Below are positions 6,488-23,098 of a stretch of DNA of 38,084 nucleotides, in pieces. The stretch comes from Candidatus Dadabacteria bacterium. GTDB taxonomy: Bacteria > Desulfobacterota_D > UBA1144 > Nemesobacterales > UBA2774. Each line of letters begins with the position of its first letter. Positions within the stretch are counted from its first letter, which is position 1. The position numbers were made by a program, and so were the translations under genes. Under the pieces are notes generated by a model, which was given only the letters and a program-made list of their open reading frames with translations, was not told the DNA's origin and searched no databases. The DNA lies in contig JBFWTW010000001.1 in the NCBI GenBank assembly GCA_050247635.1, positions 1 through 38,084 on the forward strand, written 5' to 3'.

Positions 6488-6535
6488 CTTGATAACCTCC
6501 TCATATGGGAATTCCCTGGGGATTTCCCTTTATCG

Positions 6536-6928: not shown

Positions 6929-7041
6929 TTACTACCTCCTTTGCACAAATAGTTATGAAATCCTTATGCCACTCTTAACCTGCCGTAATCATTGACCGGC
7001 CGAAACCGGCCGATGTCGAGTGTCTTAAAACAGTACACAAC

Positions 7042-7076
7042 GTGAGTGGGCGCTCACTCATTGAGTGGGCACTCAA
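7042..7076. promoter_or_regulatory. Two tandem 16-bp palindromes, a candidate operator for the nos operon
   Basis: GTGAGTGGGCGCTCAC lies at 7042..7057 and TTGAGTGGGCACTCAA at 7061..7076. The second has perfect 7-bp arms (TTGAGTG/CACTCAA) around GG. Their centres are 19 bp apart, and they lie about 115-150 nt upstream of the cytochrome c start. Confidence 0.55.
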
Positions 7077-7219
7077 TAATACACGGCGAACAGCCGGGGA
7101 GACAAGTGTTATCCGGAATTTTCGAGAAGCCGGGCTTGATGTGCGTGACAATACACGCTTTGACGCCGCACGAAGCGTGGTTTGGTTAAAATGACTTGGA
7201 AAAAGTTATTTAAGACGGA

Positions 7220-8467: not shown

Positions 8468-8471
8468 GGCT

Positions 8472-8864
8472 TTACTCGGAAGGGGCGGTCTTGTCGCGCT
8501 CGTTCTGAACGAGGGCCTTCTTCAACACTTTCAGCCCGAGTAGCGCGCACTTGAACCTAGTCGGTGAGACCGTGAGGCCCAGGGATTCGAGGACTTCCTC
8601 GTCCTTGAGGCTCATGATCTCGGAAACGTCCATCCCCGTAACCTTCTCGGTCAGTATGGATGCCGAGGCCTGGCTTATCGCGCAGCCCTTGCCGCTGAAC
8701 ATCACCGCCGCAATCTTGCCGTCCCGGAGTTTTACGTCGAGGCGGACGAGGTCGCCGCACGAAGGCACGCCCTCTTCGTAAGAGACGTCGGCGTCTTCGA
8801 GTGTGCCGTAATTCCTCGGATTTTTGAAGTGGTCGAGTATGAGCTCGTAGTGCTCGGATTCCAT
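8472..8864 (-). CDS. sufU: SufU/IscU-like sulfur acceptor or scaffold
   Basis: Matching segments are ILDHFKNPRNYG, PSCGD and GKGCAISQASAS, plus a conserved C-terminal Cys (RFKCALLG). It is adjacent to sufS. Confidence 0.85.
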   Translation of the reverse strand: MESEHYELILDHFKNPRNYGTLEDADVSYEEGVPSCGDLVRLDVKLRDGKIAAVMFSGKGCAISQASASILTEKVTGMDVSEIMSLKDEEVLESLGLTVSPTRFKCALLGLKVLKKALVQNERDKTAPSE

Positions 8865-8904
8865 TTCGTGTAAGTGTCCTTGGCGTGCGCGGCCTCTGGT
8901 TGGT

Positions 8905-8913
8905 ATTATACCA
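8905..8913 (-). promoter_or_regulatory. Extended -10 promoter element (TGGTATAAT) upstream of sufU
   Basis: The minus strand reads TGGTATAAT about 41 nt upstream of the sufU ATG. It sits in the loop of a 7-bp inverted repeat (CTCTGGT/ACCAGAG). I found no good -35 element. Confidence 0.35.
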
Positions 8914-8969
8914 GAGCTGCCTTAGCCGACCACGCCCCGGGGATGAACGAGCCGGATGCGGAGCGCCGC

Positions 8970-9560
8970 TTACGATACGACCGTGCTAATCTGGATGTTG
9001 TCTTCCCTGAGAGCCTTTTCGAGCTCGCCGAAGTTGCAGTTCACCACCCAGAAGTAGTATAGCTTCCGGTCCTCGGGGGCGACGCTGAACGAAATGACCT
9101 TGTCCGAGTTCTGCTGTATGGCGTGGAGTATGTCGAACATGTTCGTCTCGTCCAACATACGCACTTCGAGCCTGACGGGTTTTTCGTGAAAGCCCATCAT
9201 CTTGAGCAGCGCGTCGAGAAGGTCGGTTACCGTAAGGATGCCGACGAGCTCGCTCCGGCTGTTGACTACCGGCAGGGCGTTGAACTTGCCCGAGCGTATT
9301 ATCTCTGCCGCGCCTTCTATGGAGGTATAGTCGATTATCGTCACGGGGTTCGCCGCCATTATCTCCTTAACTTTGGGGTTCCCGCCCGCGGCGAGCGCCG
9401 TTCTCAAATTCCTGTCCGTAACTATTCCGACCAGATTTCCATCCTCGACCACCGGGCACTGCCGGAAGTTGAGACTCCTCATGAGATCGAGAGTTGCCGC
9501 GGCGTCGTCTGTGGGCGATACGGTTTTCGGGTCCGGGGTCATGAAATCCTTGACAAGCAT
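8970..9560 (-). CDS. CBS-domain pair protein (AcuB-like) with a C-terminal regulatory domain
   Basis: Two CBS repeats are visible: VKDFMTPDPKTVSP...VVEDGNLVGIVTDRNL and IMAANPVTI...LPVVNSRSELVGILTVTDL. Confidence 0.75.
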   Translation of the reverse strand: MLVKDFMTPDPKTVSPTDDAAATLDLMRSLNFRQCPVVEDGNLVGIVTDRNLRTALAAGGNPKVKEIMAANPVTIIDYTSIEGAAEIIRSGKFNALPVVNSRSELVGILTVTDLLDALLKMMGFHEKPVRLEVRMLDETNMFDILHAIQQNSDKVISFSVAPEDRKLYYFWVVNCNFGELEKALREDNIQISTVVS

Positions 9561-9739: not shown

Positions 9740-11269
9740 ATGACGAAAAAATACGGAAAGGTGTACCTCGTAGGCGGCGGCCCCGGAGACCCGGGGCTCA
9801 TCACGGTCAAGGGAAAAGAGATCCTCGGAAAGGCCGACACTGTCGTCCATGATTTCCTCGTAAACCTCGAGCTTTTGTCGTACACGAAGCCGGGCGCAGA
9901 GCTCATATGCGTCGGGAAGAAGGCCGGGCACACAGTCATGCCGCAGGATGAGATCAACTCACTCCTCGTCGAAAAGGCTCGCGGCGGGAGGACCGTCGCG
10001 AGGCTAAAGGGCGGCGACCCTTTCATCTTCGGGCGCGGGGGCGAGGAAGCCGAAGTGCTCGCCGCCGAGGGGATAGAGTTCGAGATCGTTCCGGGCGTGA
10101 CGTCGGCCGCGGCCGTGCCCGCGTACGCGGGGATACCGCTCACCCACAGGAAGATAGCCTCTTCGTTCGCCGTCGTCACCGGGCACGAGAACCCGGCCAA
10201 GGGCGAATCCGGCATCGAATGGGACCTGGTCGCGCGCATGGGGACTGTGGTGTTCCTTATGGGCGTCACGAACCTGGCCGCGAACATGAAGAAGCTAATG
10301 GAGTTCGGCATGAGCCCCGACACCCCGGCGGCGGTGATCGCGCGCGGGACCTATCCGTCACAGGCAAGCGTCACGGGGACAGTAGCAGACATAGCCGAAA
10401 AGGCGGCCGCGAGGGAGGACTTATCATCCCCAGCCATAGTCGTCACGGGTGAGGTCGTAAGGTTCTCGGACGTGATTTCCTGGTACGAGAAGAAGCCGCT
10501 TTTCGGGAAGAGAATAGTAGTCACCCGCCCGAGGGAGCAGGCCCGTCCGCTGTCGGCGCTCTTCGAAGAGATGGGGGCCGAGGTCATCGAGTTCCCCGCT
10601 ATTGAGATCGCGCCTCTTGCGAGCTACAAGGTCCTCGACAAGGCAATGAAGGCGCTCGGATCTTACGACTGGATAATTTTCACGAGCGTAAACGGCGTCG
10701 GGGGATTCTTCGAAAGGCTCAGGCATCTCGGCCTCGACGTAAGGGAGATGCACGGCCCGAAGGTCGCGGCGATAGGCGAGGTAACGGCAGAGGAGCTCGG
10801 CGCTCACGGGATTAACGTCGATATGATGCCCGCCGACTACAGGGCCGAGGGGCTGATAGAGCTCTTCCGCGAAATGGACCTCAAGGACAAGCGCATACTC
10901 ATACCGAGGGCGAAGGAGGCGCGCGAGATACTGCCCGAGAGCCTTCGCGAGATGGGGGCGCACGTAGACGTCGCGCCGGTTTACCAGACGAAGAAGGCGG
11001 GGAAGACGAAAACCGCCGCTCTTAAGAAAGAGATATCCGAAGGTCGCATAGACATCATCACGTTCACGAGCTCGTCTACTGTGAGGAACTTCCTCGAAAC
11101 CGTCGATGAGATACCAATTTCGGACGGTAAGCCCGTTTTCGCATGCATAGGCCCGGTTACGGCAAAGACACTTACCGATTTGGGTTACAAGGCCGCCGTC
11201 GTGCCGGCCGAGTACACTGCTGCCGGACTTGCAGAAGCAGTAGCCGATTACTTTAAAGACCTTAAGTAA
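9740..11269 (+). CDS. cobA: Bifunctional uroporphyrinogen-III C-methyltransferase / uroporphyrinogen-III synthase (CobA/HemD fusion)
   Basis: The N-terminal half carries the SUMT motifs VYLVGGGPGDPGLIT, VVHD, LKGGDPFIFGRGGEE and VPGVTS. The C-terminal half (from KRIVVTRP) resembles HemD. Confidence 0.9.
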   Translation: MTKKYGKVYLVGGGPGDPGLITVKGKEILGKADTVVHDFLVNLELLSYTKPGAELICVGKKAGHTVMPQDEINSLLVEKARGGRTVARLKGGDPFIFGRGGEEAEVLAAEGIEFEIVPGVTSAAAVPAYAGIPLTHRKIASSFAVVTGHENPAKGESGIEWDLVARMGTVVFLMGVTNLAANMKKLMEFGMSPDTPAAVIARGTYPSQASVTGTVADIAEKAAAREDLSSPAIVVTGEVVRFSDVISWYEKKPLFGKRIVVTRPREQARPLSALFEEMGAEVIEFPAIEIAPLASYKVLDKAMKALGSYDWIIFTSVNGVGGFFERLRHLGLDVREMHGPKVAAIGEVTAEELGAHGINVDMMPADYRAEGLIELFREMDLKDKRILIPRAKEAREILPESLREMGAHVDVAPVYQTKKAGKTKTAALKKEISEGRIDIITFTSSSTVRNFLETVDEIPISDGKPVFACIGPVTAKTLTDLGYKAAVVPAEYTAAGLAEAVADYFKDLK

Positions 11270-11406
11270 GTTCTGTAAACGTGACCGGACACCTGCGAAA
11301 CTTCTTCATAGAAGGCCCCCTTGTGTAAAGCCGCTTCTGACATCCTCTCCAAACAGCTTCCGGTTTGTATTGCAATCCTTTAGCATCATGTAATATATTT
11401 CCCACT

Positions 11407-12129
11407 ATGCCCAGAATTCCTCTACCCTCGCAGGGAATCGAAGAAGATAAGGCCGTGATAAGCGGCGCCGATTACAGGCACATGGTCAAGGCGCTACGGC
11501 TCGGAGTTGGCGACGAGGTCACGCTCTTCGGCGAAGACTCTCGTGAGTACACCGGGGTGATATCTTCAGTCGGGAGCCGCGAGCTGGTTGTCGATATAAC
11601 CGGTAGCCGCCTGATCGCGGCCGACCCCGTGATCGACATAACGATACTCCAGGGCCTCCCCAAGGGGGAGAAGATGGACTATATCGTGGAGAAGGCGACC
11701 GAGCTCGGGGCGACGAGGATAGTGCCCGTCGTAACGGAGAGGTCCCAGGTGAGAAAAACCGGGAAGCATCAGAGATGGGAGAGGATAGCTCTCGAGGCGT
11801 CGAAACAGTGCGGACGGACGAAACCTACCCTTATAGAAAATACTTTAGAGTTCAAAGAGGCGCTATTATATAAGGATGAGAGCGACTTGGCTATCATACT
11901 TCACACCGAATCGAGCCTATCCATAAAAGAATTTATAAGGAATACTTTACAAGGTGCCAAGAATATTATAGTATTGATAGGACCGGAAGGTGGATTTTCG
12001 CAAAACGAAGTCCTCCTTGCTATTGAAATGGGTTTTACATCCCTGGGTCTGGGTCCCAGGATTCTAAGGACAGAGACCGCTAGCCTGGCGGTTCTCTCCA
12101 TAATCCAATTTCAACATGGAGACTTGTGA
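11407..12129 (+). CDS. rsmE: 16S rRNA (uracil1498-N3)-methyltransferase RsmE
   Basis: Matching motifs are ILQGLPKGEKMDYIVEKATELG, RWERIALEASKQCGR, GPEGGFS and LGPRILRTETA. The start is uncertain: ATG at 11407 versus the track TTG at 11365. Confidence 0.8.
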   Translation: MPRIPLPSQGIEEDKAVISGADYRHMVKALRLGVGDEVTLFGEDSREYTGVISSVGSRELVVDITGSRLIAADPVIDITILQGLPKGEKMDYIVEKATELGATRIVPVVTERSQVRKTGKHQRWERIALEASKQCGRTKPTLIENTLEFKEALLYKDESDLAIILHTESSLSIKEFIRNTLQGAKNIIVLIGPEGGFSQNEVLLAIEMGFTSLGLGPRILRTETASLAVLSIIQFQHGDL

Positions 12130-13572
12130 TCACAATCGCAGTCTCCGTGTAATTTCTACAAGCTCTTCCTTCATCGAATCCCTCAACCTGTGGTATCTGC
12201 TTTCGTCTATTTTTCCGGCTTCGAAGTCGTCGTCGAGTGCCGCTATGTCGCGTATAAGCTGGCTCCGTTTATCTAGGAGCTCTTTTCTCTCGCGCTCTCC
12301 GGATTCTTTTTCCTTCGCCGCGCCTCCCTTGCCCATCGAGGAATAGAGTATCCCGAGGCCCACCAGAAGGAGGATGAGCCCGAGTGCTGCCCATTTTATG
12401 TAACCGTCGAGGTAAGCAGCGATGCCGCCGGTCCCCTTGAACTTTATCATTATCTTGTCGCCGGGCTTAAGGTCCTTGCCCTGCCATTTGAAGTAATTCA
12501 CTTTTTCCATCTGTACAGGCTCGGGATCGGCGGTGAGCCCCGTGACATCGACGCCGTTCTTAGTTTCCGGCACGAGCAGCAGGAAGCTGTCGGTCGGATA
12601 GATAATATTCTTTTCTATCGTTACCGCACCCGAATCGGTGGGCATGCTGTAGGCGAAGATCACCCTTTTCTCGCCGGGCATCACGCTCTCGGTATCCGAA
12701 AAGCCGTGCTCAGTCGTTACGACGGACTCGGGGTCGAGGCCGTGCATGATGGTGACGTTAGCTGCATGCGGAGGGAGGTCGAACCGGAGGGTTTCTTTCT
12801 TGCCTTCGGCTATGTCGGCATTGCCCACGAAGATTTTGTCCCCCGGGTTATTGAATATCATTATATCGCCCACGTTGACGCCGTTTTCAGAGATCTCGAC
12901 AACGGTGTGCGCTTCCTTAACCGTTATGCCGGGATCGTCCAGAGTAGGCTCGTAAACGGGGAGATCGAGAGTCTTTACATTCTCGTCCGGGAGAAAGACC
13001 ATCTTGTCGGTCGCATATTCGGCGCCGTTAAAGGCGAGTGTCAGGGAGTAGCTCCTGTCCCAGGCGAGCTTGTCGAACTTGAACGTGCCGTCGGCTGAGG
13101 TTTCCGCCTCCTCGTCCCCGGTTTCCCTGTCACCCATGAAGGCTTTAAGCGAAACGGTTACTCCCGGCACGGGAACCTCCGTCGTTTTATTAACGACCTT
13201 ACCGGTTATCGTGCCGCCTTCGGGATTCACCTTCCCGGCCTTTGCCTTCATCAGGTACTCGGCTATCGCCCTGGCTTCCATCGGATGAACGTCCTGAGGC
13301 GGAGGCATGGGGGGATATCCCTCGTTTATGGGCATCTTCCCTTCCTTGCTGTAAATCTCCTGCGGGTCTGTTATCCAGCGGACAATATCCTGGGGGGAAT
13401 AACGCTGGCCGACGCCTTTAAGGTCGGGGCCGACGAAGCGCCCCCTGCCTATGGTGTGGCACCTGACGCATCCGTTTTCTATGAATAGCTTGCCGCCGAG
13501 CTCCTGCATGTCGTGCGGGTTCTGGGCAATGGAGTCGCGGGCCGGAACGGCGAGCATCAAAAGCGCCGTCAT
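12130..13572 (-). CDS. Exported cytochrome c domain + Ig-like (CarboxypepD_reg-like) beta domains + C-terminal TM + CcmI-like cytoplasmic helix
   Basis: The heme motif is CVRCHTIGRGRFVGPDLKGV, paralogous in pattern to the nos cytochrome c. GKVVNKTTEVPVPGVTVSL resembles a carboxypeptidase-regulatory fold. The TM segment is WAALGLILLLVGLGILY. The tail reads LDDDFEAGKIDESRYHRLR. The 5' end is unresolved (see findings); 13572 is the first ATG downstream of the overlap. Confidence 0.65.
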   Translation of the reverse strand: MTALLMLAVPARDSIAQNPHDMQELGGKLFIENGCVRCHTIGRGRFVGPDLKGVGQRYSPQDIVRWITDPQEIYSKEGKMPINEGYPPMPPPQDVHPMEARAIAEYLMKAKAGKVNPEGGTITGKVVNKTTEVPVPGVTVSLKAFMGDRETGDEEAETSADGTFKFDKLAWDRSYSLTLAFNGAEYATDKMVFLPDENVKTLDLPVYEPTLDDPGITVKEAHTVVEISENGVNVGDIMIFNNPGDKIFVGNADIAEGKKETLRFDLPPHAANVTIMHGLDPESVVTTEHGFSDTESVMPGEKRVIFAYSMPTDSGAVTIEKNIIYPTDSFLLLVPETKNGVDVTGLTADPEPVQMEKVNYFKWQGKDLKPGDKIMIKFKGTGGIAAYLDGYIKWAALGLILLLVGLGILYSSMGKGGAAKEKESGERERKELLDKRSQLIRDIAALDDDFEAGKIDESRYHRLRDSMKEELVEITRRLRL

Positions 13573-13600
13573 TACCGCCGCGAGGAATAAAACGCGATTA

Positions 13601-14158
13601 TTAAACCGATTTAGCCTTTTTATCTTCTGGGCCTCCTTTAAGGCTGGCGCCGCAGCGGGCGCAAAAAAGATCGTCCGGGCCGCAGGTGCTGCCGCATTCG
13701 GGGCACGCGGCCGTTTCAGGCGAGCCCCACGCGCTTTCGCGCGCACGGATTATTTCCTTTTCTATCTCCTCGTCCTCGTAATCGTTAAGGACGACTTTTT
13801 TTCTCTTCGATTTTATTTCGTTTTCGAGCTCGTCGGCGAATGCGGCGTCCCAGTTCCTGCCGGTGGCCTCGTCTATTTCCTTGAGCACCGCGGCGGCCTC
13901 GGCGCGGTACTTCCGGCTTAGGTCTTTATAATCCGCGGTCGAGAGCTTCCCGAGCCCGTGGTCGAACTCGATATCGGCCAGCGCCGAAAGGAGCGTGTCC
14001 TTACGGACGTGGAGCGTCCGCAGCCGCTCGGCCCTGGGGTCGGGCCGGAGCGCGTCGTCTTCCAGAGAGCTGTCTTTCCCGCGTCTGAAGAACGGTAGCG
14101 ATATAAATATTGCGGCGAGTAGAGCTATCGCCAGTGGCAGTATAAGCTGCAATTCCAT
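13601..14158 (-). CDS. N-terminal TM + CcmI-like helix + C-terminal zinc-ribbon protein
   Basis: The TM segment is LILPLAIALLAAIFISLPFF, followed by RRGK. LADIEFDHGLGKLSTADYKDL resembles the cytoplasmic segment after TM1 of CcmI/CycH. The zinc ribbon is CPECG-x10-CARCG. Confidence 0.65.
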   Translation of the reverse strand: MELQLILPLAIALLAAIFISLPFFRRGKDSSLEDDALRPDPRAERLRTLHVRKDTLLSALADIEFDHGLGKLSTADYKDLSRKYRAEAAAVLKEIDEATGRNWDAAFADELENEIKSKRKKVVLNDYEDEEIEKEIIRARESAWGSPETAACPECGSTCGPDDLFCARCGASLKGGPEDKKAKSV

Positions 14159-14191
14159 CTCGTTTCCGAATCGGCGCTCAAGCCGGGGAGA

Positions 14192-16198
14192 TTATACTTT
14201 GAGCGCGCTGTCCTTTTCGCCGAGCGTATACCGAACGAAAACCTCTTCCCTGCTCTTCCGCCCGTCGGGGAGCATGGTAATGATCGCCCCCAGGACGAGA
14301 ACCACTCCGCCGGCCCATATCCAACTTACGAGCGGGTTCAATATGATCCGAAGGGTGGCGCCCCCGTCGTCGGTGAAGCTCATGAGAATTATATACAGGT
14401 CGTCGGTAAGCGTCGACCTCAGGGCGACTTCAGTCTCCTGATTTATTTCCCTGTTACCTTCGTATTTGTAGATGTTCTTTTCGGGCGACATAATGCCTAT
14501 ATCTTTTCCGCCCTTAAACGCCGTGAGCGTCGCGACCGTCGCGTTCTTGGCGTTGGTCGTATACTGGTTGATTCCGTTGAATGTGAACGTGTAGTCGTTA
14601 AGGGTCACGGACTCTCCCTTGGACAGGGTGACCTGTTTTTCCGTAACGAATACGGACGACGAAGTGATTCCGATAACGATTAGCACTACGCCGATGTGGA
14701 CAATGTAGCCGCCGTACCTGCGCTTGTTCTTCGACACGAGCCGCCCGAATGCAACAAGCGGGTTTTCGCCCCTCTTCGATCGAACGCGAATGCCTCGGAA
14801 GAACTCGGTGAACACCGTTACCACCACAAAAGCGCAGAGCGAGTACGCAAGGAGCGCATAGGTATCGTGGATGCCGAGCGCGAAAAGAAGAACGCCGGTA
14901 ACTATTGCAACCACCGTCGGAACGAAGAAGTTCTTGAACAGGTTTTCCTTAGACGCCTTCCGCCACGAAATGAGCGGCCCCACCCCCATCAGAAGCACGA
15001 GGACGAGGGCTATCGGCGTATTCACTTTGTTAAAGTACGGAGGCCCGACGAGTATCTTCTCGCCCGTTATCGCCTCTGACAATATCGGGAAAATCGTCCC
15101 CAGGAATACCGCGAACGCGGCCCCCAGGAAGAGGAGGTTGTTGAATATAAATGCGCTCTCGCGGGAGAGTATGGAATCGAAATTATTCTCCGATTCGAGG
15201 TCCTTCATCCTGTAGAGGAACATCGAGAAGGAAAAGAGAAGTATGAAGGCTATGAACCCGAGGAACATCGGGCCGATGTCTGACTGCGCGAATGAGTGGA
15301 CGGACGATATGACGCCGCTACGCGTGATGAATGTGCCGAAAATAGACAGGAAGAATGTCAGTATGATGAGGGACATGTTCCACTTCTTGAGCATGCCCTT
15401 TCTTTCCTGGATCATGACCGAGTGAACGAACGCCGTCGCCGCGAGCCACGGCATGAAGGCCGCGTTTTCGACAGGATCCCACGCCCAGTAGCCGCCCCAT
15501 CCGAGCTCGAGATAAGCCCACCTCGCGCCGAGTATGAGGCCGATGCTAAGGAACGTCCACGCAAAGAGCGTCCACTTCCGGGAATACCTTATCCATTCGT
15601 CGCCTAGCTTTCCGCTAAGAAGAGCGCCCATGGCGAACGCGAACGGCACGGCGACGCCGACGTAGCCGAGGTAGAGCGTTACGGGGTGAATCGCCATGTA
15701 TGCGTTCTGGAGTATGGGGTTCAGCCCCCTGCCCTCGAGCGGCGCCACGGCGAGCTTTTCGAAGGGGCTTTCCACGAATGCCACGATGAATGTAAAGAAT
15801 ATTGCTATCGCGCCGAGAGTCGCTATGACGTAGGGCATCAGCTCTCGCGACTTGCCTTTTGTCGACATCACGACCAGCGCCATATAAATGGAAAGTACGA
15901 AAGCCCACAGAAGGAGCGAGCCTGCCTGCCCCGCCCAGAGCGAAGTCATCCTGAAGATCACTGGAAGGTCGGTGCTCGTGTTCATCGCGACGTACTTAAT
16001 GCTGAAGTCGAGATTTACGAGTGAATGCAGAAGAGCGAGTATCGCTATCAGAAGAAGGAAGAATATCGCCAGCGCTGCGTTACGGGCGCTGTCCACGAAA
16101 TCGCGCCTGCCGGATTTCGCGCCGTATACCGACGCGAATACGATGTAGATCGACAGGACAAAGGCTACCAGTACAGATATGTATCCGGTCTCGGCCAT
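14192..16198 (-). CDS. ccmF: Cytochrome c-type biogenesis protein CcmF (heme lyase component)
   Basis: It is a large polytopic protein with the WWD motif WGGYWAWDPVENAAFMPW and flanking conserved His residues. Its start overlaps the ccmE stop (TAATG). Confidence 0.9.
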   Translation of the reverse strand: MAETGYISVLVAFVLSIYIVFASVYGAKSGRRDFVDSARNAALAIFFLLLIAILALLHSLVNLDFSIKYVAMNTSTDLPVIFRMTSLWAGQAGSLLLWAFVLSIYMALVVMSTKGKSRELMPYVIATLGAIAIFFTFIVAFVESPFEKLAVAPLEGRGLNPILQNAYMAIHPVTLYLGYVGVAVPFAFAMGALLSGKLGDEWIRYSRKWTLFAWTFLSIGLILGARWAYLELGWGGYWAWDPVENAAFMPWLAATAFVHSVMIQERKGMLKKWNMSLIILTFFLSIFGTFITRSGVISSVHSFAQSDIGPMFLGFIAFILLFSFSMFLYRMKDLESENNFDSILSRESAFIFNNLLFLGAAFAVFLGTIFPILSEAITGEKILVGPPYFNKVNTPIALVLVLLMGVGPLISWRKASKENLFKNFFVPTVVAIVTGVLLFALGIHDTYALLAYSLCAFVVVTVFTEFFRGIRVRSKRGENPLVAFGRLVSKNKRRYGGYIVHIGVVLIVIGITSSSVFVTEKQVTLSKGESVTLNDYTFTFNGINQYTTNAKNATVATLTAFKGGKDIGIMSPEKNIYKYEGNREINQETEVALRSTLTDDLYIILMSFTDDGGATLRIILNPLVSWIWAGGVVLVLGAIITMLPDGRKSREEVFVRYTLGEKDSALKV

Positions 16199-16629
16199 TA
16201 GTATGAGGTCCCCTGGGGCGCGCCCTGGTCGTTATAGAGAACGTCGGTCGATTCGTATTTCGTCGGGCACTTGGCCAGAAGAATGTCTGCCTGGAAAACG
16301 CCCGATTCGGAATACACGCCCTCGACCACCGCTTCTACGTCATCCTTGAAAACGTCGGGGACTATGCCGTTGTAATTGACGTCCACGGCCCCTGCCCCGT
16401 CCGAGATGCTGAACGCGAGGGCGCCGTCGGCGCCGTGCTTTATAGTGCCCGGGATTACGTTGCCGGATACGCGCACCCTTTCTCCGTAAACGTCCGGCAC
16501 CCTGGCGTGGAGCTCTTCTACTGTGAGGTAGTAGACCATCGTCTCCCTCACACCGCCGTATACGAGATAGGCGACCGCGAAGGCTATCGCGCCTATCGCT
16601 ATAATGAACTTCATCTTTCCTTTAAGCAT
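16198..16629 (-). CDS. ccmE: Heme chaperone CcmE, Cys (CxxxY) variant
   Basis: It has an N-terminal anchor and an OB-fold-like body (RVRVSGNVIPGTI, VVEGVY). The heme-binding position reads LAKCPTKYE instead of the canonical LAKHDENY. Confidence 0.85.
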   Translation of the reverse strand: MLKGKMKFIIAIGAIAFAVAYLVYGGVRETMVYYLTVEELHARVPDVYGERVRVSGNVIPGTIKHGADGALAFSISDGAGAVDVNYNGIVPDVFKDDVEAVVEGVYSESGVFQADILLAKCPTKYESTDVLYNDQGAPQGTSY

Positions 16630-16669
16630 TTACACCCACCTCTCACACGATTGGACAGGTGCGCGCTCC

Positions 16670-17329
16670 CTACGCGCCGGTCCTTATTGATTCGAGCTCT
16701 CGCTTGAGGCTCCTTTGTTTCGTAAACAAATGATAAATATATATAATCAGGGCTATCCAGACAACTGCACTTCCCCAAAAAAGATAATCTATCCTGAGCG
16801 GACGCGATTCCAGAACAACGTCGTCTATCCATACCTTGCCGTGCCCCTCGACGCCCAAAGCGAGCGTGATTTTCTCGGGCTCGGGGCCCGTGTCGAGGTA
16901 AAGGTCCGTTTCGGCCGGCACCCAGTCGCTTGTCCCCGAGGGCGGTATGCGCGGGCCGCGTGAGACGACGTCCTCGCCGTTTGCGTATTGTGCGTGGAGC
17001 TCCAGATACGCAATCCCCCTTTCCTCGCCCGTGCCGGTCAGCCCTTCGGTTTTCAGCCTGGCTTTATATACGATTCTAGAGTGGTTTAAATCTGACGGGT
17101 CCGGGGTGAAGAGCGTGAGCGTCACCGGCTTGTCGGTGTCTACGAGTATGGAGCCGTCGCTGCCTGTGAAAGACGCCCCGGCGTCGTATTCGACGGCCTC
17201 GCCGTCGACCACGTCTTCCGTGCTTGAAGTTGGAAAGATAGTGACCGAATTTTCCTTTTCCGACGAGCTGAAGCAGCCCGAAAGCACCCAGGCGAAAGAC
17301 AGAAATAGGCCAAGCGTTACGTATCTCAT
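16670..17329 (-). CDS. Lipoprotein with a beta-rich exported domain fused to a CcmD-like C-terminal TM segment
   Basis: The lipobox is VLSGC. The C-terminus, DYLFWGSAVVWIALIIYIYHLFTKQRSLKRELESI, matches my recollection of the CcmD pattern (aromatic/small residues, W, TM, then basic RxL..EL). The gene sits where ccmD is expected, between ccmC and ccmE. Confidence 0.6.
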   Translation of the reverse strand: MRYVTLGLFLSFAWVLSGCFSSSEKENSVTIFPTSSTEDVVDGEAVEYDAGASFTGSDGSILVDTDKPVTLTLFTPDPSDLNHSRIVYKARLKTEGLTGTGEERGIAYLELHAQYANGEDVVSRGPRIPPSGTSDWVPAETDLYLDTGPEPEKITLALGVEGHGKVWIDDVVLESRPLRIDYLFWGSAVVWIALIIYIYHLFTKQRSLKRELESIRTGA

Positions 17330-17485
17330 AATGGGCTTCTTGATTGGCGAAATTATAGAATACCCGCAGGTTTACAAATCTACAATTAGTTAATAGAACC
17401 AATTTAATGTAGTGCCTGGGGGGACTTTTTTTCGTGATAGCGAAATGGGGGAAAGCTTGTGATTGAGACGGTACGGCGACGGCTT

Positions 17486-18208
17486 TTAAGCCCGGCCCGT
17501 CTCGTCATCGGCCGGGGTTTTGTTTCCGGAAGGCTCGTCGTCTTCCTCATCCTGCTCCGAAGAATCCTCATCCGGAACAGGTGTATTTCCCCCTGTTGAA
17601 GGCGCAACCGCCGCTTTTCGAGGCAGTATCATGAGCTGCACGACGAGGCCGAACACCCCGAGGGCGAACCATATCATCGCCATCCTGTATAGCTGGTCCT
17701 CTTCGAGATTCCCCAAAAAGCCCGGGTCGAGCGGGTAGAAGTTCCTGTACAGGATGTACGCCCCGCCCGTGACGGCAGCGAACGAGCCGCCGAACGCCGT
17801 CGCGATTATCAGCATCGGCTTCTGGAAGACGGCCGCTAGCGCGCCCGAGATTATGGCCGCGCCGTAGAGGACGGCCGGGATGACATCCATGTTCATAAGG
17901 CTGAAGACGTACATCGCGATCGTAAAGCCTAGTATTGCCCCCAGAAAAAAGACGCCGATTACGTAGAGGTAGTAGAAAAGACACGCGCCGAGGACGCCGC
18001 CCGCGAGGCCAGCGATTATAGAGACAGGCTCGCTCCCCCCGGAGAGCTCGTAGCCGAGGCTGCCGAAGAATACCGCCGCCGCGACGAACCCCGCGACGCC
18101 CAGAATGAAACGGAAGATTCTATAGCCGAAGAAGCATTCGACGAGGCCGGCCGCTACCGCAATCGCTGCGTAGTAGAAAAGGATGTCAGCGTTTCCGCCG
18201 GTCGGCAT
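17486..18208 (-). CDS. Polytopic Gly/Ala-rich membrane protein (DUF4203/TMEM198-like) with an acidic C-terminal tail
   Basis: It has about 6-7 TM segments rich in G/A/F/Y. The tail reads PDEDSSEQDEEDDEPSG. The family guess is from memory of the pattern only. Confidence 0.5.
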   Translation of the reverse strand: MPTGGNADILFYYAAIAVAAGLVECFFGYRIFRFILGVAGFVAAAVFFGSLGYELSGGSEPVSIIAGLAGGVLGACLFYYLYVIGVFFLGAILGFTIAMYVFSLMNMDVIPAVLYGAAIISGALAAVFQKPMLIIATAFGGSFAAVTGGAYILYRNFYPLDPGFLGNLEEDQLYRMAMIWFALGVFGLVVQLMILPRKAAVAPSTGGNTPVPDEDSSEQDEEDDEPSGNKTPADDETGRA

Positions 18209-18306
18209 ATTGGTTTTTCTCCGTTGGGCCGCGTCGCCGCGTTTTGTGATTCGGGTCCTGTCTTACGTGGGCGGATGGCACATGGCCGAACGAAGCGCGC
18301 AGGGAA

Positions 18307-18966
18307 TCAGCTTTCTCTCGTTCGGAGGCGCGCCAGCACGTCGCCCAATTTTTCGAGATCCATTCTTTCGAGCAGGAGCACTATGAAAAGGAGCGAGCAC
18401 GCTACCAGGTTCACGAGAAGCGCGTGCATCATCTCGGGCTCTATGCCGCCCCCTCCCGGCCCGAAGACGACCGGGGATATACCGCGCATGACCCGCACCG
18501 ACAGATACACAAGCGGGAGGTCGATGAAGGCGATTATGCCGAATACAGCAGCGAACTTCGCCCTACGCGTGTTTGTCCCCGCAGACGAGCGGAGTATGAG
18601 GTATACGATGTAGAGGATCCAGAGTATGAACGTCGTCGTGAGCTGAGGGTCCCACGTCCACCACGTGCCCCAGATCGGCTTTGCCCAGATGGCCCCTGTG
18701 AGTATCGTTATCGTGAGGAACAGCACCCCGATTTCGGCCGAGCAATAGGCGAGTATGTCCCACCCGCGCGTCTGCTTCCACAGGTACATGATGCTCGCAA
18801 CGAAGACGATTATGAACGCGACCGTCGCAACCCACACTGTCCCCATGTGGAAGTAAAAGAGCCTCTGCACGTGGCCCATAAGCGGCTCGGTCGGTGCGTA
18901 AACAAGCGCCATCCAGGTGGCGACGGCGAGGAGAATGAACGTTACTATCGTAAGGGCGCGTCTCAT
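18307..18966 (-). CDS. ccmC: Heme exporter/handling protein CcmC
   Basis: The WWD motif is WAKPIWGTWWTWDPQLT in a roughly 6-TM protein. It is adjacent to ccmB. Confidence 0.9.
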   Translation of the reverse strand: MRRALTIVTFILLAVATWMALVYAPTEPLMGHVQRLFYFHMGTVWVATVAFIIVFVASIMYLWKQTRGWDILAYCSAEIGVLFLTITILTGAIWAKPIWGTWWTWDPQLTTTFILWILYIVYLILRSSAGTNTRRAKFAAVFGIIAFIDLPLVYLSVRVMRGISPVVFGPGGGGIEPEMMHALLVNLVACSLLFIVLLLERMDLEKLGDVLARLRTRES

Positions 18967-18969
18967 TTT

Positions 18970-19644
18970 TCAGGATTCCTCTATGACGTATTCGAACACA
19001 ACCGCGCACGCGGCAACAAAGATTATATCGAATGCGATCAGGAGTTGTAAAGCGGAATAGCCGTCGGAGAGAGGCTTTCCTTCGAGGACGAGGGACGAGA
19101 GCTTAACAGCGCTTACGATGAGCGGGATGATTATCGGGAAGAGAAGAATCGGGAGGAGGACTTCCCTTAGCCGCGTGTTCACGGCCATTGCGGAGAAGAG
19201 CGTCCCGACGGCGACGTAGCCGAGAGAGCCGAGCAGGACAACCGGGATAAGCGGCAGGACGGTCGCGATGAAATCGAGGTTGAAGAATATGACGAACATC
19301 GGGACTATTATCATCCCGACGATGAATACGAATATCGTCCCGCTAATTAGCTTGCCTATATATATGAAGCTCCTGTCGGTCGGCGTAAGCAGGAGGCCGA
19401 GAACAGCGTTGCCTTCCTTTTCCAGCGCGAACGAGCGCGAGAGGCCGAGGACCCCGGCGAAGGTGAACGTTATCCACAGCATCGCGGGGGCCGCGAGCTT
19501 TATAAGGCCAGTCGAGAATGCGAAGGCGAAGCTGAATATGACGACCACGAGGATTGAGAAGGTGAGCATGGACGTAAAGAGCTCCTTCGTCCTCATCTCG
19601 GTTATCAGGTCCTTCTTTACAATCGCCCAGATTTTATCCAGCAT
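18970..19644 (-). CDS. ccmB: Heme exporter permease CcmB
   Basis: It is a six-TM ABC-2-like permease starting KDLITEMRTKE, lying 3 nt upstream of ccmC. Confidence 0.8.
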   Translation of the reverse strand: MLDKIWAIVKKDLITEMRTKELFTSMLTFSILVVVIFSFAFAFSTGLIKLAAPAMLWITFTFAGVLGLSRSFALEKEGNAVLGLLLTPTDRSFIYIGKLISGTIFVFIVGMIIVPMFVIFFNLDFIATVLPLIPVVLLGSLGYVAVGTLFSAMAVNTRLREVLLPILLFPIIIPLIVSAVKLSSLVLEGKPLSDGYSALQLLIAFDIIFVAACAVVFEYVIEES

Positions 19645-19971
19645 AAAATTCCTTTTTAACCCTTTGCGTCACCCATTCGAACGCTTTACGTCACAAGTGA
19701 CATTTTCTAACACCTAAATCCGCTCTTAGTAGAGCAGAATACAGCAACAATAACCATATTAATACAATATTATCAGCATATTATAACATATATCTAATGT
19801 CGGATATCATTATAATTTCCAGCTTTTTAGCCACTGATTCCCTCAAAGATCTGAAGTCAATAATACTTAAATTTTCGATTCAAGCTGTGTTCTATTTATG
19901 GTTTATATATATCTGCCGCTATTAATATTTTTCTCCTGATAATATTTAAAGTGACCGGCATCAATCGCATC
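19645..19971. other. AT-rich non-coding island between ccmA and ccmB
   Basis: This 327-nt stretch is visibly far more AT-rich than its flanks and has no ORF of 60 aa or more. The minus strand carries an extended -10 (TGTTATAAT, 19780..19788). GTCACAAGTGAC at 19690..19701 is a perfect 12-bp palindrome. Further GTCAC/GTGAC copies occur near 19668 and 19951. Confidence 0.7.
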
Positions 19972-20703
19972 CTACACATTTTCGACGCTTTCTATATACA
20001 GCTCCTTGAAACGCTCGCCGTCGAGGTCTCCAGAGGCCCCATGGTAGACCAGCTTACCCCCGGCTATGATGCCGACCTTGTCGCTCATCCCGAGCCCCTC
20101 GTCTATGTTGTGGGTCGTCATGAGTATCGTCCTGCTGCGCGATTTGAGCGCCGCCAGCATCTCGCCGAACACCTTCGCGCCGTGCTGGTCGAGCCCGGTG
20201 TAGGGCTCGTCGAGGAGTAGGATCGACGGCTCGTGCACAGTCGCCCTTGCGACGGCGAGCCGCTGCTTCATGCCCCGGCTGAAGTTCCGGACGATGTCGT
20301 GCATGCGTTTTCCGAGCCCGACGGCCGTGACGACCTCCTTCGCCCGGGCGTCGAGGTCCGTGACGCCGTAGAGCGCGCCGAAGAATTTTATGTTTTCGAG
20401 CGCCGAGAGGTTCTCGTAAAGATAGGGATCGTGCGAGATGACCCCCGTGATCCGCCTTATCTCGTCGGCCTCCTTCCCGGAATCGTGCCCGGCAACCGTG
20501 AGCGAGCCCGTAGAAGGCTTCGTCAAAGTCGAAAGGAGCTTGATGAAGGTCGTCTTCCCCGCGCCGTTAGGGCCGAAGAGGGTGAAGAACTCCCCCTTCC
20601 CTATCGCGAGGTCTATACCCCTGAGCGCGTCGAACGTGCCGAAGGATTTCGTGAGCCCCCGGGCCTCGATGTAGGCGGCTTCGTTGGTTAGCGGCTGAGC
20701 CAT
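19972..20703 (-). CDS. ccmA: ABC transporter ATP-binding protein, CcmA by context
   Basis: Walker A is GPNGAGKTT, the signature is FSRGMKQRL and Walker B is LLLDEP. It is the first gene of the ccm gene string. Confidence 0.7.
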   Translation of the reverse strand: MAQPLTNEAAYIEARGLTKSFGTFDALRGIDLAIGKGEFFTLFGPNGAGKTTFIKLLSTLTKPSTGSLTVAGHDSGKEADEIRRITGVISHDPYLYENLSALENIKFFGALYGVTDLDARAKEVVTAVGLGKRMHDIVRNFSRGMKQRLAVARATVHEPSILLLDEPYTGLDQHGAKVFGEMLAALKSRSRTILMTTHNIDEGLGMSDKVGIIAGGKLVYHGASGDLDGERFKELYIESVENV

Positions 20704-20804
20704 GAGCGGAAAGAAAGCTACATTATATAAGGGAATGTTTCAATTTGGCATCAGTATAGCCCGGGGCGGATTTTGCGCGTGGAATGTCCGGGAGGAGCCG
20801 CGCT

Positions 20805-21836
20805 TCAGAATTTGAGGAGCTCGTCGGTGCCCCCCAGGAGCTTCACCCAATCGGCGAGCTTCGCCATGCCCTCGTCGAGCGGTACGGACGGCTCGTAGCC
20901 GAGCTGGCGGCGGGCCTTCTCAATCGAATAGCTCCTGCTGCCTGCCAGGGCCGCGACGGCGAAGCGCGTCAGAACCGGCGGCTTCTTCGACCCCATGAGC
21001 TTGAACAGGGCCTCCATAACGGCGGCGACCGAGTATGCGAACTTGTACGGGATAGAAAAGCCCGGCTTCCATTCTATGCCCGCCGCGCGGAGCTGCTTCG
21101 TCAAAAACTCCATGTAGCCGATCTTTACGCCGTCGTTTATGAAGTAGATGTTGCCCGAGGAATCCTGGCTTTGTGCGGCGAGGATCATGGCCCGCGCGAG
21201 GTTGTTAACGTGGCACGGCGTCACGGTTCGCTTGCCGCTGCCCATGGGATGGAGTATCCCCTTTTTAGCCGCCACCGCGACGCGCGGGAGTATAACGGTA
21301 TCGCCCGCGCCCCAGACGTTTGACGGCCTTATGACCGCCGTCTCGATGCCCGACGTGCCGTTATAGGCTATCACTAGCCTTTCGGCCTCGGCCTTGGAGG
21401 CATTGTAGCTGTCGTTGTACTTATCCCTGTAGGGGTACGTCTCGTCTATATCGACGAGGTCGTGAACGCTCCAGAAGTCTGACTGCCATACGACCGTCGA
21501 GGAGCTCATGTGGACGAACCGTTTTACGCCGGAGCCGGCGGCCGCCGAGAGGAGCGTCTTCGTCGCTTCGACGTTGTACTTGAAGAAGTCTTCCCTGGGA
21601 CCCCAGTCAGAGACCATGGCGGCCACGTGGAATACGACGTCAGCGCCATTGGGCAGCCTCTTTAAGCTATCAGGATTGCCGAGGTCGCCGTGAACCAGCC
21701 TTACGCCGAGCTCCTTTAGCATCTCGACGTTGCTCGTGTCGCGGACGAGGCATGTGACGTCGTGCCCGCGCGAGACAAGCTCCTCGACGAGCCTTCCGCC
21801 GATAAACCCCGTCCCTCCGGTTACTGCGGCTTTCAT
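20805..21836 (-). CDS. NAD-dependent epimerase/dehydratase (extended SDR, 3-beta-HSD-like)
   Basis: The Rossmann motif is VTGGTGFIGGRLV and the catalytic YxxxK is YNASK. Confidence 0.8.
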   Translation of the reverse strand: MKAAVTGGTGFIGGRLVEELVSRGHDVTCLVRDTSNVEMLKELGVRLVHGDLGNPDSLKRLPNGADVVFHVAAMVSDWGPREDFFKYNVEATKTLLSAAAGSGVKRFVHMSSSTVVWQSDFWSVHDLVDIDETYPYRDKYNDSYNASKAEAERLVIAYNGTSGIETAVIRPSNVWGAGDTVILPRVAVAAKKGILHPMGSGKRTVTPCHVNNLARAMILAAQSQDSSGNIYFINDGVKIGYMEFLTKQLRAAGIEWKPGFSIPYKFAYSVAAVMEALFKLMGSKKPPVLTRFAVAALAGSRSYSIEKARRQLGYEPSVPLDEGMAKLADWVKLLGGTDELLKF

Positions 21837-21941
21837 CGTGGCTATCCTCCGGGCAGCCCGAGACCGGGCGGCTTAGGAATTAATATACTCCGAAAGCCAG
21901 GCGAAACCAAAAGAGAAGTGTTTAAAATTATTCACCGGACG

Positions 21942-21989
21942 AAAAAAAAAGCCGCGCCCGCGCGTTTCTCAACGTACGGACACGGCTTT
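21942..21989 (-). terminator. Intrinsic terminator after the small ORF
   Basis: The minus-strand RNA reads AAAGCCGUG ... CGCGGCUUUUUUUUU. A 9-bp outer stem includes one G-U, an inner CGCG/CGCG mini-hairpin is present, and a run of nine U follows. Confidence 0.5.
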
Positions 21990-22011
21990 AGAGGTATGGT
22001 GTTGGTTGGTA

Positions 22012-22245
22012 TCAGTATTGGTTTCTATATTGATTATCCGTAAGCCAGTTCTCCATCCATTCCTTCGTTTTCTCGGCAAGTTCCCTGCTCGAAGCGGCTG
22101 ATACACGCGTGTCGTTCAGGAAAACGCCCCAGTAAGTGACCGGCGCGTGAACCGACTCCATGTGCGCTTCTTTGTCGAATCCATAAACCTCGGGTGAACA
22201 ATCGCAGGACGGCTTGATCGTGCACGGTGCTACTCGTATATCCAT
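22012..22245 (-). CDS. Small hypothetical protein (77 aa)
   Basis: The start is placed at the internal ATG (MDIRVAPCTIKPSCDCSPEVYGF...), which is preceded by GAGGTG with 5-nt spacing. A terminator follows. I recognised no family. Confidence 0.45.
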   Translation of the reverse strand: MDIRVAPCTIKPSCDCSPEVYGFDKEAHMESVHAPVTYWGVFLNDTRVSAASSRELAEKTKEWMENWLTDNQYRNQY

Positions 22246-22471
22246 GTCTTCACCTCGCTGTTTGAATTTTTGCCAATCAACTCTATGCAAAACACTTGCA
22301 ATTATCATGCCAATATTGAATCTAATCATGAGTTACATGATTTCAAGGCTTTACATCAAAAGCCCCCGATCTTACCGTTCGCGATTTACCGCAAGTGCAC
22401 AAAAAACGGCACATATGTGCAACAATATCCACCACATACGAACCGCCAAAATGAAGGGACGGTTCAGAATG

Positions 22472-22500
22472 TTGACAAGGGGGGTTTTATAGTAGAAAAT
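22472..22500 (+). promoter_or_regulatory. Candidate sigma-70 promoter for pdaD
   Basis: TTGACA lies at 22472..22477, followed by a 17-nt spacer and GAAAAT at 22495..22500. Confidence 0.3.
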
Positions 22501-22543
22501 TCTGCTTTTATTTCAGGAACTACGCTTAAATTTTACGGAGGGA

Positions 22544-23098
22544 ATGTCATTGCTTCTACCTAAACAGGCTTTTATCACGAAGGGCGTTGGAAAACATAAG
22601 GAAAAGCTCACGAGCTTCGAGATGGCTTTGAGAAACGCTAAAATTGCAGAATTCAATTTGGTGAGGGTATCCAGCATATTCCCCCCGCATTGTACGCTCG
22701 TGCCGCGCTCCAAGGGGCTCAAGAACCTCTTCCCGGGGCAGATCGTGCACGTCGTTATCAGCGAAAACGCAACCAACGAGCCCAACAGGCTCATCGCCGC
22801 GGCGACCGGCATCGCCCTGCCGAAAGACACCACCCGCCACGGCTACATATCCGAGCATCACAGCTACGGGCAGAATGACACGATAGCCGGCGAATACGCC
22901 GAAGACCTCGCGGCATACATGCTTGCGACGACCCTCGGCGCCGCGTTCGACCCGGACAAGAGCTACGACGAGCAGAAGGACACCTGGGAGATCAGCGGTC
23001 ACATCGTCAAGACGACGAACACGACCCAGACGGCCGTAGGCGACAAGAGCGGCCTCTGGACGACCGTCATCTCGGCAGTCGTTTTCTGCGAGTTCTGA
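22544..23098 (+). CDS. pdaD: Pyruvoyl-dependent arginine decarboxylase (PdaD/AaxB family)
   Basis: Matching segments are GVGKHKEKLTSFEMALRNAKIAEFNLVRVSSIFPP, which contains the Ser-Ser self-cleavage site, and HGYISEHH. The in-frame TTG at 22550 has better spacing to GGAGGG (7 nt) than the ATG at 22544. Confidence 0.8.
   Translation: MSLLLPKQAFITKGVGKHKEKLTSFEMALRNAKIAEFNLVRVSSIFPPHCTLVPRSKGLKNLFPGQIVHVVISENATNEPNRLIAAATGIALPKDTTRHGYISEHHSYGQNDTIAGEYAEDLAAYMLATTLGAAFDPDKSYDEQKDTWEISGHIVKTTNTTQTAVGDKSGLWTTVISAVVFCEF

Follow-up and report, generated by a model that had tools for sequence, protein, structure and literature searches.

A 38,084-nucleotide (nt) stretch of DNA from a Candidatus Dadabacteria bacterium (contig JBFWTW010000001.1, positions 1 to 38,084; hereafter, the window) carries on its minus strand a cytochrome c maturation (ccm) operon, the last two genes of which, here referred to as p8 and p9, are the main subject of this analysis. 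On the basis of the open reading frame (ORF) listing and profile scans, the operon of this 38-kb window reads ccmA, a 327-nt AT-rich gap, ccmB, ccmC, p4, p5, ccmE, ccmF, p8, and p9. All ten elements of this string are found at the positions, and with the identities, assigned to them in an earlier note on this DNA. The operon stems from a Dadabacteria-type bacterium and employs a cysteine-type CcmE, i.e., that of System I*. While the System I* operon itself is known, the unnamed and widespread p8/p9 pair linked to ccmF is new; the operon also has clade-specific additions.

The core components CcmA, CcmB, CcmC, CcmD, CcmE, and CcmF are all present. CcmA, the ATPase of the heme-handling ABC complex, is encoded at 19972–20703 (ABC_tran PF00005, 3e-29; TIGR01189, 1e-36, which is below the model cut-off), and its position is identical in the related locus L001 and in Dadabacteria-type loci. 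Further along the minus strand lie ccmB (18970–19644; PF03379, 1.7e-30) and ccmC (18307–18966; PF01578, 3.7e-31; TIGR01191, 1e-31), the latter harboring the WWD motif WGTWWTWDP. The heme lyase CcmF (14192–16198; CcmF_C PF16327, 2e-72; PF01578, 3e-37) also has a WWD motif, and its four heme-ligand histidines, H171, H259, H301, and H501, are invariant in comparison with the proteobacterial, Desulfovibrio, and Bacillus CcmF proteins. The ccmE gene (16198–16629; PF03100, 3e-27) encodes C121-P-T-K-Y125 (nt 16255–16269) in the motif LLAKCPTKYE, which is of the CxxxY type, whereas the proteobacterial controls read KHDENY.

System I* is the variant Ccm machinery of Desulfovibrio and archaea (Allen 2006, Goddard 2010, as summarized in PMC3601427 and PMC9084895). 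As in those organisms, CcmA through CcmF occur here in a cluster devoid of CcmH and CcmG. Profile scans of the window detect no gene for CcmH, CcmG/TlpA, CcdA, or a CcmI of the tetratricopeptide repeat (TPR) type, in agreement with the earlier note, which had found ccmG and ccmH missing as recognizable genes; in the 28 Dadabacteria-type loci, no CcmH or CcmG was found in the 10 kb that flank the CcmE match on each side. The note had also singled out the locus as the best candidate for an undescribed module. This description does not apply to the combination of a CxxxY CcmE with the lack of CcmH and CcmG, because a variant System I without ccmG and ccmH has already been published as System I* (PMC3601427, PMC9084895); it does apply to the p8/p9 pair. 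About a third of the bacteria with a cysteine-type CcmE do have CcmH (PMC3601427). The Desulfovibrio operon is reported to yield holocytochrome c in Escherichia coli without CcmH or CcmG, with CcmI stimulating the reaction without being essential for it (PMC3601427). The archaeal System I* has been characterized as well, and the replacement of CcmD, CcmH, and CcmI by non-orthologous proteins was left open (PMC9084895). The Desulfovibrionales clusters have the order ccmE-F-A-B-C-D, include a CcmI composed of a transmembrane (TM) helix and TPR, and lack p8 and p9. In contrast, the window has the order ccmA-B-C-(p4)-D-E-F-p8-p9 and no TPR protein.

The p8 protein (13601–14158) consists of an N-out TM helix (nt 14087–14149), a cytoplasmic helix resembling the N-terminal region of CcmI (nt 13859–14026), which has the sequence DIEFDHGLGKLSTADY, and a C4 zinc ribbon (nt 13640–13714; Zn_ribbon matches at about 6e-4). 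The zinc ribbon is optional, being missing in the Bacilli loci and several others. A search of 1.84 billion representative proteins with the p8 profile gives 14,408 matches at E ≤ 1e-3 and 3,582 at E ≤ 1e-10. The best 150 matches are mostly full-length proteins of about 110–270 amino acids (aa), a minority being unrelated zinc-ribbon repeat proteins. These proteins (P0200, P0206, P0212, and similar ones) rank among the top matches, are 700–1300 aa long, and contain 9–19 repeat matches to the zinc-ribbon part of p8; they are not p8 relatives and inflate the family count. No Pfam or NCBIfam model was found for the p8 or p9 families, and a search of the literature for a zinc-ribbon or hypothetical protein next to ccmF found no description of either. 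An assignment of p8 as an anti-sigma-type regulator was rejected on the grounds that it has no periplasmic sensor domain and that its topology is reversed.

A cytoplasmic zinc ribbon is also found on another protein of some ccm clusters. In L002 (7015–7464), L052, and L053, a protein of 131–155 aa is encoded 5′ of ccmF, in clusters that also have a normal CcmH and p8. Its N-terminal zinc ribbon is cytoplasmic, and a TM helix connects it to a CcmH-like domain in the periplasm (CSCGQC…DCDC; PF03918, 8e-5, below the cut-off). Taken with the zinc ribbon on p8, this implies that cytoplasmic zinc ribbons recur on System I* accessory proteins.

The p9 gene (12130–13623, the 5′ end being approximate) encodes a signal peptide followed by a class I cytochrome c domain (nt 13243–13503; Cytochrom_C, 1.5e-7) with CVRCH at nt 13456–13470, a CarboxypepD_reg β-sandwich (nt 12961–13212; 1.9e-8), two further β-sandwiches (nt 12439–12924), a TM helix (nt 12334–12423), and a cytoplasmic helical hairpin with a CcmI-like motif (nt 12136–12303), the helix having the sequence LDDDFEAGKIDESRY. 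The AlphaFold2 model, based on 47 homologues, has a predicted local distance difference test (pLDDT) score of 80.4 and places the cytochrome c domain at residues ~20–110, three β-sandwiches at 120–378, the TM helix at 384–413, and the two arms of the hairpin at 424–451 and 457–479, with the G-K-I motif at the turn. Thus, the periplasmic β domains noticed earlier as “Ig-like” are present, but they are modeled as three β-sandwich domains instead.

The cytochrome c domain scores 33.1 bits versus 21.3 for PF00034, and both CVRCH and GKMP, which supplies the distal Met, are (nearly) invariant in the 47 homologues. The heme motif CxxCH contains the only conserved periplasmic cysteines of p9. Altogether, p9 has 175 full-length homologues. 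The cytochrome c domain is found in the Dadabacteria-type loci and in three others (L059, L064, and L072), while p9 in most other lineages is without any heme motif. The p9 proteins of these three loci and of the Dadabacteria-type L034 and L036 end at the TM helix and lack the cytoplasmic hairpin.

The start of p9 is probably ATA 13623. The listed ORF begins at GTG 13746 and would overlap p8 by 146 nt, whereas ATA 13623 lies 8 nt past a perfect AAGGAGG (site 13621–13638, minus strand). When the equivalent site is compared in L011–L014, L013 and L014 are found to contain no ATG, GTG, or TTG throughout the signal-peptide region, and the more distant relatives L001, L016, L017, L025, and L027 have ATG at the codon equivalent to ATA 13623. 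P0027, a 480-aa database protein identical to this part of the window, lacks 17 residues in comparison and fits a start at ATG 13572, which would strip the positively charged n-region from the signal peptide.

The top matches of the p9 model in a Foldseek search of the PDB are Ost1/ribophorin I of oligosaccharyltransferase (6ezn_A, 6c26_1, 6s7o_E, and 8pn9_E; E of 2e-10 to 1e-7), and the next-ranking ones are N-terminal domains of M1 aminopeptidases. Ost1 and p9 have in common extramembrane β-sandwich domains, a single TM helix, and cytosolic helices, and each accompanies a polytopic membrane enzyme that modifies unfolded, Sec-translocated chains. The resemblance is taken as an analogy of architecture and not as demonstrated homology.

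The distribution of p8 and p9 was assessed by a profile search of genome contigs with the cysteine-type CcmE alignment, which recovered 80 loci from species-representative genomes, each of them (80/80) with C-x3-[YF] in CcmE. Every ORF segment of all loci was scanned with hidden Markov models (HMMs) built for the purpose, and the 67 loci that contain ccmF and at least 700 nt of downstream sequence were considered evaluable. p8 and/or p9 are present in 58/67 evaluable loci, comprising the Dadabacteria-type loci (28/28), those of Bacilli (4/4; Cytobacillus, Bacillus fonticola, Radiobacillus, and Virgibacillus), one of the two from Chloroflexi, and a set of others (25/25; labeled as Desulfobacterales and relatives, Actinomycetota, Acidobacteriota, Fidelibacterota, Krumholzibacteriia, Neomarinimicrobiota, and others). 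The negative Chloroflexi contig ends 976 nt past ccmF. In contrast, none of the eight Desulfovibrionales loci has p8 or p9. Their clusters end in a 203-aa protein with a TM helix and TPR, which fits the “CcmI” of System I* (PMC3601427), and the distributions of p8/p9 and TPR-type CcmI are therefore complementary.

The linkage of the pair to ccmF is tight as well as phylogenetically wide. Without exception (53/53), p8 genes start 8–253 nt 3′ of ccmF (42 genes) or ccmH (11 genes) on the same strand, and no p8 match away from ccmF or ccmH is found among 16,650 ORF segments. Among 50 p9 positions, 35 are after p8, 10 after ccmF, and one after ccmH, the remaining four being at contig ends. Neither gene occurs in the control loci, i.e., proteobacterial HxxxY clusters and a Deinococcus ccmF locus. 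In two proteins, p8 is fused to a partner. P0281 contains a CcmH domain (PF03918, 1.9e-16), a TM helix, and then a complete p8 (33% identity to p8 of the window, E of 7e-24), and P0225 joins p8 and the p9 core in one chain (30% identity, E of 1e-28). The CcmH of Escherichia coli is likewise a CcmH–CcmI fusion. Of the four extra genes for which a conserved linkage to ccm had been envisaged, p8 and p9 display it, in at least six named phyla and with fusions, whereas p4 and the long form of p5 are seen only in Dadabacteria-type loci. The pair is present in the cultured Bacilli Cytobacillus firmus, Bacillus fonticola, and Virgibacillus oceani. On an annotated plasmid of Cytobacillus firmus (p1), p8 (WP_263600176.1) and p9 (WP_263600177.1) lie between ccmH and ccmA, and both are labeled “hypothetical protein”.

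The earlier note had proposed that p8 and p9 share a CcmI-like helix next to their TM helices, and the comparison of the two families bears this out. In a search of 1846 ORF segments, an HMM of the p8 N-terminal region matches the C-terminal part of p9 with an E of 2e-4 and the p9-type proteins of other lineages with E values of 2e-6 to 5e-3. On account of these matches, the D-x3-G-K-[IL]-x4-Y module of p8 and p9 is considered real, beyond chance. The N-terminal region of proteobacterial CcmI is laid out in the same way, with a proline at the end of an N-out TM helix and a related motif in the cytoplasmic helix that follows (e.g., LYREQLNELDTDLQSGTL); a two-TM N-terminal domain of CcmI with a cytoplasmic region has been described (PMC3884852). 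TIGR03142, the model of this N-terminal domain, matches 7/17 members of the p8 family at 12–22 bits, with a cut-off of 29.3 and a best E of 1.6e-4, and also the C-terminus of one p9-type protein. These matches keep a constant register over model positions 4–70, which span the TM helix, the proline that ends it, and the cytoplasmic helix, and TIGR03142 is the sole model that recurs among the matches of the p8 family besides zinc-ribbon or coiled-coil families. The p8 of the window itself has no match to TIGR03142 at E ≤ 10.

The likeness to CcmI/CycH thus includes an N-out TM helix with a terminal proline, a cytoplasmic helix with a motif of the L-x-E-[LI]-D-x-[DE]-x3-[GN]-x-[LI] type, a gene position 3′ of ccmF or ccmH, and fusion to CcmH, as in E. 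coli and P0281. There are also salient differences. The proteobacterial CcmI/CycH proteins combine the TIGR03142 N-terminal domain with periplasmic TPR and Ig-like domains. In contrast, p8 has one TM helix instead of two and no periplasmic domain, and p9 has a signal peptide, one TM helix, and β-sandwich domains in place of TPR repeats. No TPR match is obtained for p8 or p9, while the Desulfovibrio CcmI control does match TPR models. Because the TIGR03142 matches are sub-threshold, the hhalign probabilities are 10–27%, and a second TM helix and TPR are lacking, p8 and p9 are not filed as CcmI family members. However, judging from their position, the CcmH fusion, and the complementarity with TPR-type CcmI, a CcmI-like role is the best-supported reading and the more likely one.

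On the basis of the linkage, the fusions, and the domain architecture, we propose that p8 and p9 of this System I* operon are accessory subunits of the CcmF step that dock on CcmF as a split, TPR-less functional equivalent of CcmI, a reading to which we assign a probability of roughly 0.7. CcmAB, CcmC, and CcmD (here p5) would load heme onto Cys121 of CcmE, and CcmF would pass the heme of CcmE to the CxxCH sites of apocytochromes. p8 and p9 would each contribute one TM helix and a conserved cytoplasmic helical module, resembling the first TM helix and the cytoplasmic loop of CcmI; these modules probably dock onto CcmF (or CcmF–CcmH, where CcmH exists) and onto each other. The β-sandwich ectodomain of p9 would stand in for the CcmI TPR domain and keep either the unfolded apocytochrome or CcmE at the lyase. 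Such a function is made plausible by the resemblance of the ectodomain to Ost1/ribophorin I, a subunit of an enzyme acting on unfolded translocated chains. A fuller version of this proposal, in which p8 and p9 are unrecognized but widespread heme lyase subunits of System I*, their TM-helix modules clamping CcmF, the Ost1-like ectodomain serving as an apocytochrome chaperone, the two together constituting a split CcmI equivalent, and the tethered cytochrome c of the Dadabacteria-type p9 perhaps feeding electrons to the heme-transfer site or sensing its redox state, is considerably more tentative and, taken as a whole, somewhat doubtful.

Several observations weigh against the proposal. The alignment of p8 with CcmI by hhalign gives a probability of 26.7% over 59 columns with the larger p8 set but 10.5% over 23 with smaller alignments. 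The p8/p9 helix also gives sub-threshold matches to SHOCT (PF09851), with one of the 47 p9 homologues at 0.016 and P0225 at 0.0023 (18 bits versus 27). Despite the Foldseek E of 2e-10, the TM-score between p9 and Ost1 is only about 0.25 and the sequence identity 7–12%, and when the p9 family is searched by sequence against Pfam and the PDB, the only matches are to cytochrome c and transthyretin-like proteins, with none to Ribophorin_I (PF04597). Many loci contain only one of the two genes, p8 being found without p9 in at least 12. Because the Desulfovibrio System I* worked without CcmH and CcmG and its CcmI was dispensable (PMC3601427), the contribution of p8 and p9 may be limited to an enhancement. 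Finally, most of the surveyed loci derive from metagenome-assembled genomes, the taxon labels of which may be wrong.

Other roles for the pair can be envisaged. The earlier note had suggested that p8 and p9, with p4 and p5, substitute for the missing thiol handling by CcmG and CcmH, and the absence of both proteins from the window and the neighborhoods of its relatives, as well as the presence of a redox cofactor in the periplasmic part of p9, would fit such a function. However, CcmH clusters with p8/p9 in 15/58 loci, CcmG accompanies the pair in each of the four Bacilli loci and in several more, and CcmH and p8 are joined in P0281. A PF03918 CcmH domain with CxxC has no match in p4, p5, p8, or p9; the conserved cysteines of p9 are limited to its heme motif, on a cytochrome c domain that most other lineages lack, and those of p8 belong to a cytoplasmic zinc ribbon that is itself missing in many lineages. 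Moreover, System I* has been reported to function without CcmG or CcmH (PMC3601427). In view of the CcmH co-occurrence, the CcmH–p8 fusion, and the lack of a periplasmic thiol motif, p8 and p9 do not appear to be replacements for CcmG and CcmH, and the suggestion is very unlikely to be correct. It is similarly improbable that p9 is a membrane-anchored respiratory cytochrome c, e.g., an electron donor to the neighboring clade II NosZ, that is transcribed together with its own maturation machinery, with p8 as its private assembly or anchoring partner and no general role of the pair in heme attachment. A nos cluster does lie 6 kb away, and likewise in L001, and its cytochrome c (6536–6928, minus strand, outside the operon; sequence CAACHTIGGGKLAGPDL) scores 8e-17 with an HMM built from the cytochrome c domain of p9. 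By sequence, the two are close paralogues, and the CxxCHTIGxGxxxGPDL pattern that had been noticed in both is confirmed. The conserved core of p9, however, is made up of the β-sandwiches, the TM helix, and the cytoplasmic helix rather than the cytochrome domain. Heme-free homologues keep the position after ccmF or p8 in the Desulfobacterales-type, Bacilli, and Chloroflexi loci and in L002–L006, and p8 also occurs without p9.

A further alternative casts p8 and p9 as scaffold or regulatory proteins with a generic, SHOCT-like oligomerization helix unrelated to that of CcmI; they would stabilize, localize, or regulate CcmF, for example by coupling it to a cytoplasmic partner via the zinc ribbon, without contacting the apocytochrome. 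The sub-threshold SHOCT matches, the weak profile–profile support for CcmI homology, and the cytoplasmic zinc ribbons on p8 and on the CcmH-like protein encoded 5′ of ccmF in L002, L052, and L053 are consistent with this alternative. It would not readily account for the conservation of a large periplasmic p9 core with a fold like that of peptide-handling modules, for the complementarity with TPR-type CcmI, or for a CcmH–p8 fusion that parallels the CcmH–CcmI fusion, and it is regarded as unlikely.

The proposed placement of p8 and p9 at the CcmF step bears on heme attachment by System I* where CcmH, CcmG, and a TPR-type CcmI are all missing. p8 and p9 lie directly after ccmF in almost every cysteine-type ccm operon of the sample apart from those of Desulfovibrionales, and they are sometimes fused to CcmH. 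They are testable candidates for the missing apocytochrome-handling subunits of System I*, and the question of a non-orthologous replacement of CcmH and CcmI (PMC9084895) thereby gains a concrete candidate. Their occurrence in cultured Bacilli may make functional study practical.

A lead in the same direction comes from haloarchaea. On plasmids of Halobacterium noricense (L094, 11231–12457) and Halorussus halophilus (L095, 6887–8077), a “carboxypeptidase regulatory-like” protein is encoded directly 3′ of ccmF, and its comparison with the p9 core profile by hhalign gives a probability of 92.7% over 199 columns. The protein has a PGF-CTERM-like tail and no cytoplasmic helix. Since only two genera are concerned, the p9-like gene is regarded as a lead and not as a result. 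The CcmE proteins of these two loci end in …LSVRAHEG, without CxxxY, and the annotation of L094 includes a “CcmD family protein” of 39 aa, even though archaea are said to lack CcmD (PMC9084895).

For the most part, p4, the long p5, and the p9 cytochrome c domain are specific to Dadabacteria-type genomes. p4 (17486–18208, minus strand) is a polytopic, TM7S3/TM198-like membrane protein with an acidic tail (PF13886, formerly DUF4203; 1e-19, 71.5 bits versus a gathering threshold of 29.2). Found in 15/28 Dadabacteria-type loci but nowhere else in the survey, it is a lineage-specific insertion between ccmC and ccmD.

p5 (16670–17329, minus strand) harbors an N-terminal lipoprotein signal (LSGC), a periplasmic β jelly roll at residues 28–177 (nt 16799–17248), and a CcmD TM helix at residues 181–213 (nt 16691–16789). 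The AlphaFold2 model (pLDDT 78) is composed of the same three elements, and its jelly roll resembles carbohydrate-binding modules (CBMs) of the CBM16/22/29 type (Foldseek E of 1e-5 to 1e-6). The 33 C-terminal residues score above the cut-off of the CcmD model (TIGR04391, 27.9 bits versus 24), p5 sits between ccmC and ccmE, and the short CcmD ORFs of other loci match its C-terminus. p5 differs from CcmD in having an additional signal/lipoprotein peptide and a CBM-like periplasmic jelly roll of about 150 residues. This long form is found only in Dadabacteria-type loci (18/28), while elsewhere a CcmD of 42–71 aa occupies the equivalent position. That CcmD carries a periplasmic domain on its N-terminus here implies that it is oriented N-out, C-in, and this natural fusion bears on the disputed topology of CcmD.

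The gap between ccmA and ccmB (19645–19971) is non-coding and is possibly an internal promoter or regulatory region. The 500-nt segment that contains it has a GC content of 0.37 versus ~0.57 in the flanking sequence. In the high-GC Dadabacteria subclade, the gap retains a length of 220–330 nt and a GC content of 0.27–0.42, while its sequence is conserved only among near relatives; an alignment across 10 relatives reveals no conserved element. A terminator scan of the gap region found none, and promoter-like sites are present at consensus level only. An Rfam scan of 11000–22600 has no match in the gap; its only match, to PrrB/RsmZ, lies inside ccmB and was dismissed as chance-level. The gap was set aside as a feature of interest. 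In three low-GC relatives (L021, L022, and L032), the gap is 840–870 nt long. A putative promoter-like site (ATGCCA-18-TATAAT, 10/12 matches in a consensus scan) is located 5′ of ccmA at 20722–20751 on the minus strand.

Small SHOCT-domain proteins are encoded just 5′ of the ccm clusters in L006, the Cytobacillus plasmid (7233–7388), and in L002 (508–714 and 5575–5943), which belong to unrelated lineages. Their proximity may be a coincidence, or they may be related to the SHOCT-like helix of p8 and p9.

The operon is flanked by a cobA/hemD fusion (tetrapyrrole methylase and uroporphyrinogen-III synthase), nifS/nifU, a CBS-domain gene, and the nosZ-nosD-ABC cluster, which has its own cytochrome c; these neighbors lie at 9740–11269 on the plus strand and 4439–9560 on the minus strand. 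The homologues of p8, p9, and p5 are labeled Dadabacteria or Thermodesulfobacteriota, and the NCBI taxonomy places the class Candidatus Dadabacteria in Thermodesulfobacteriota. The CcmE match in L011 is 100% identical. A relative at about 50% protein identity, L001, keeps the whole operon and its flanks, including nosZ and its neighborhood, nifSU, cobA-hemD, and rsmE.

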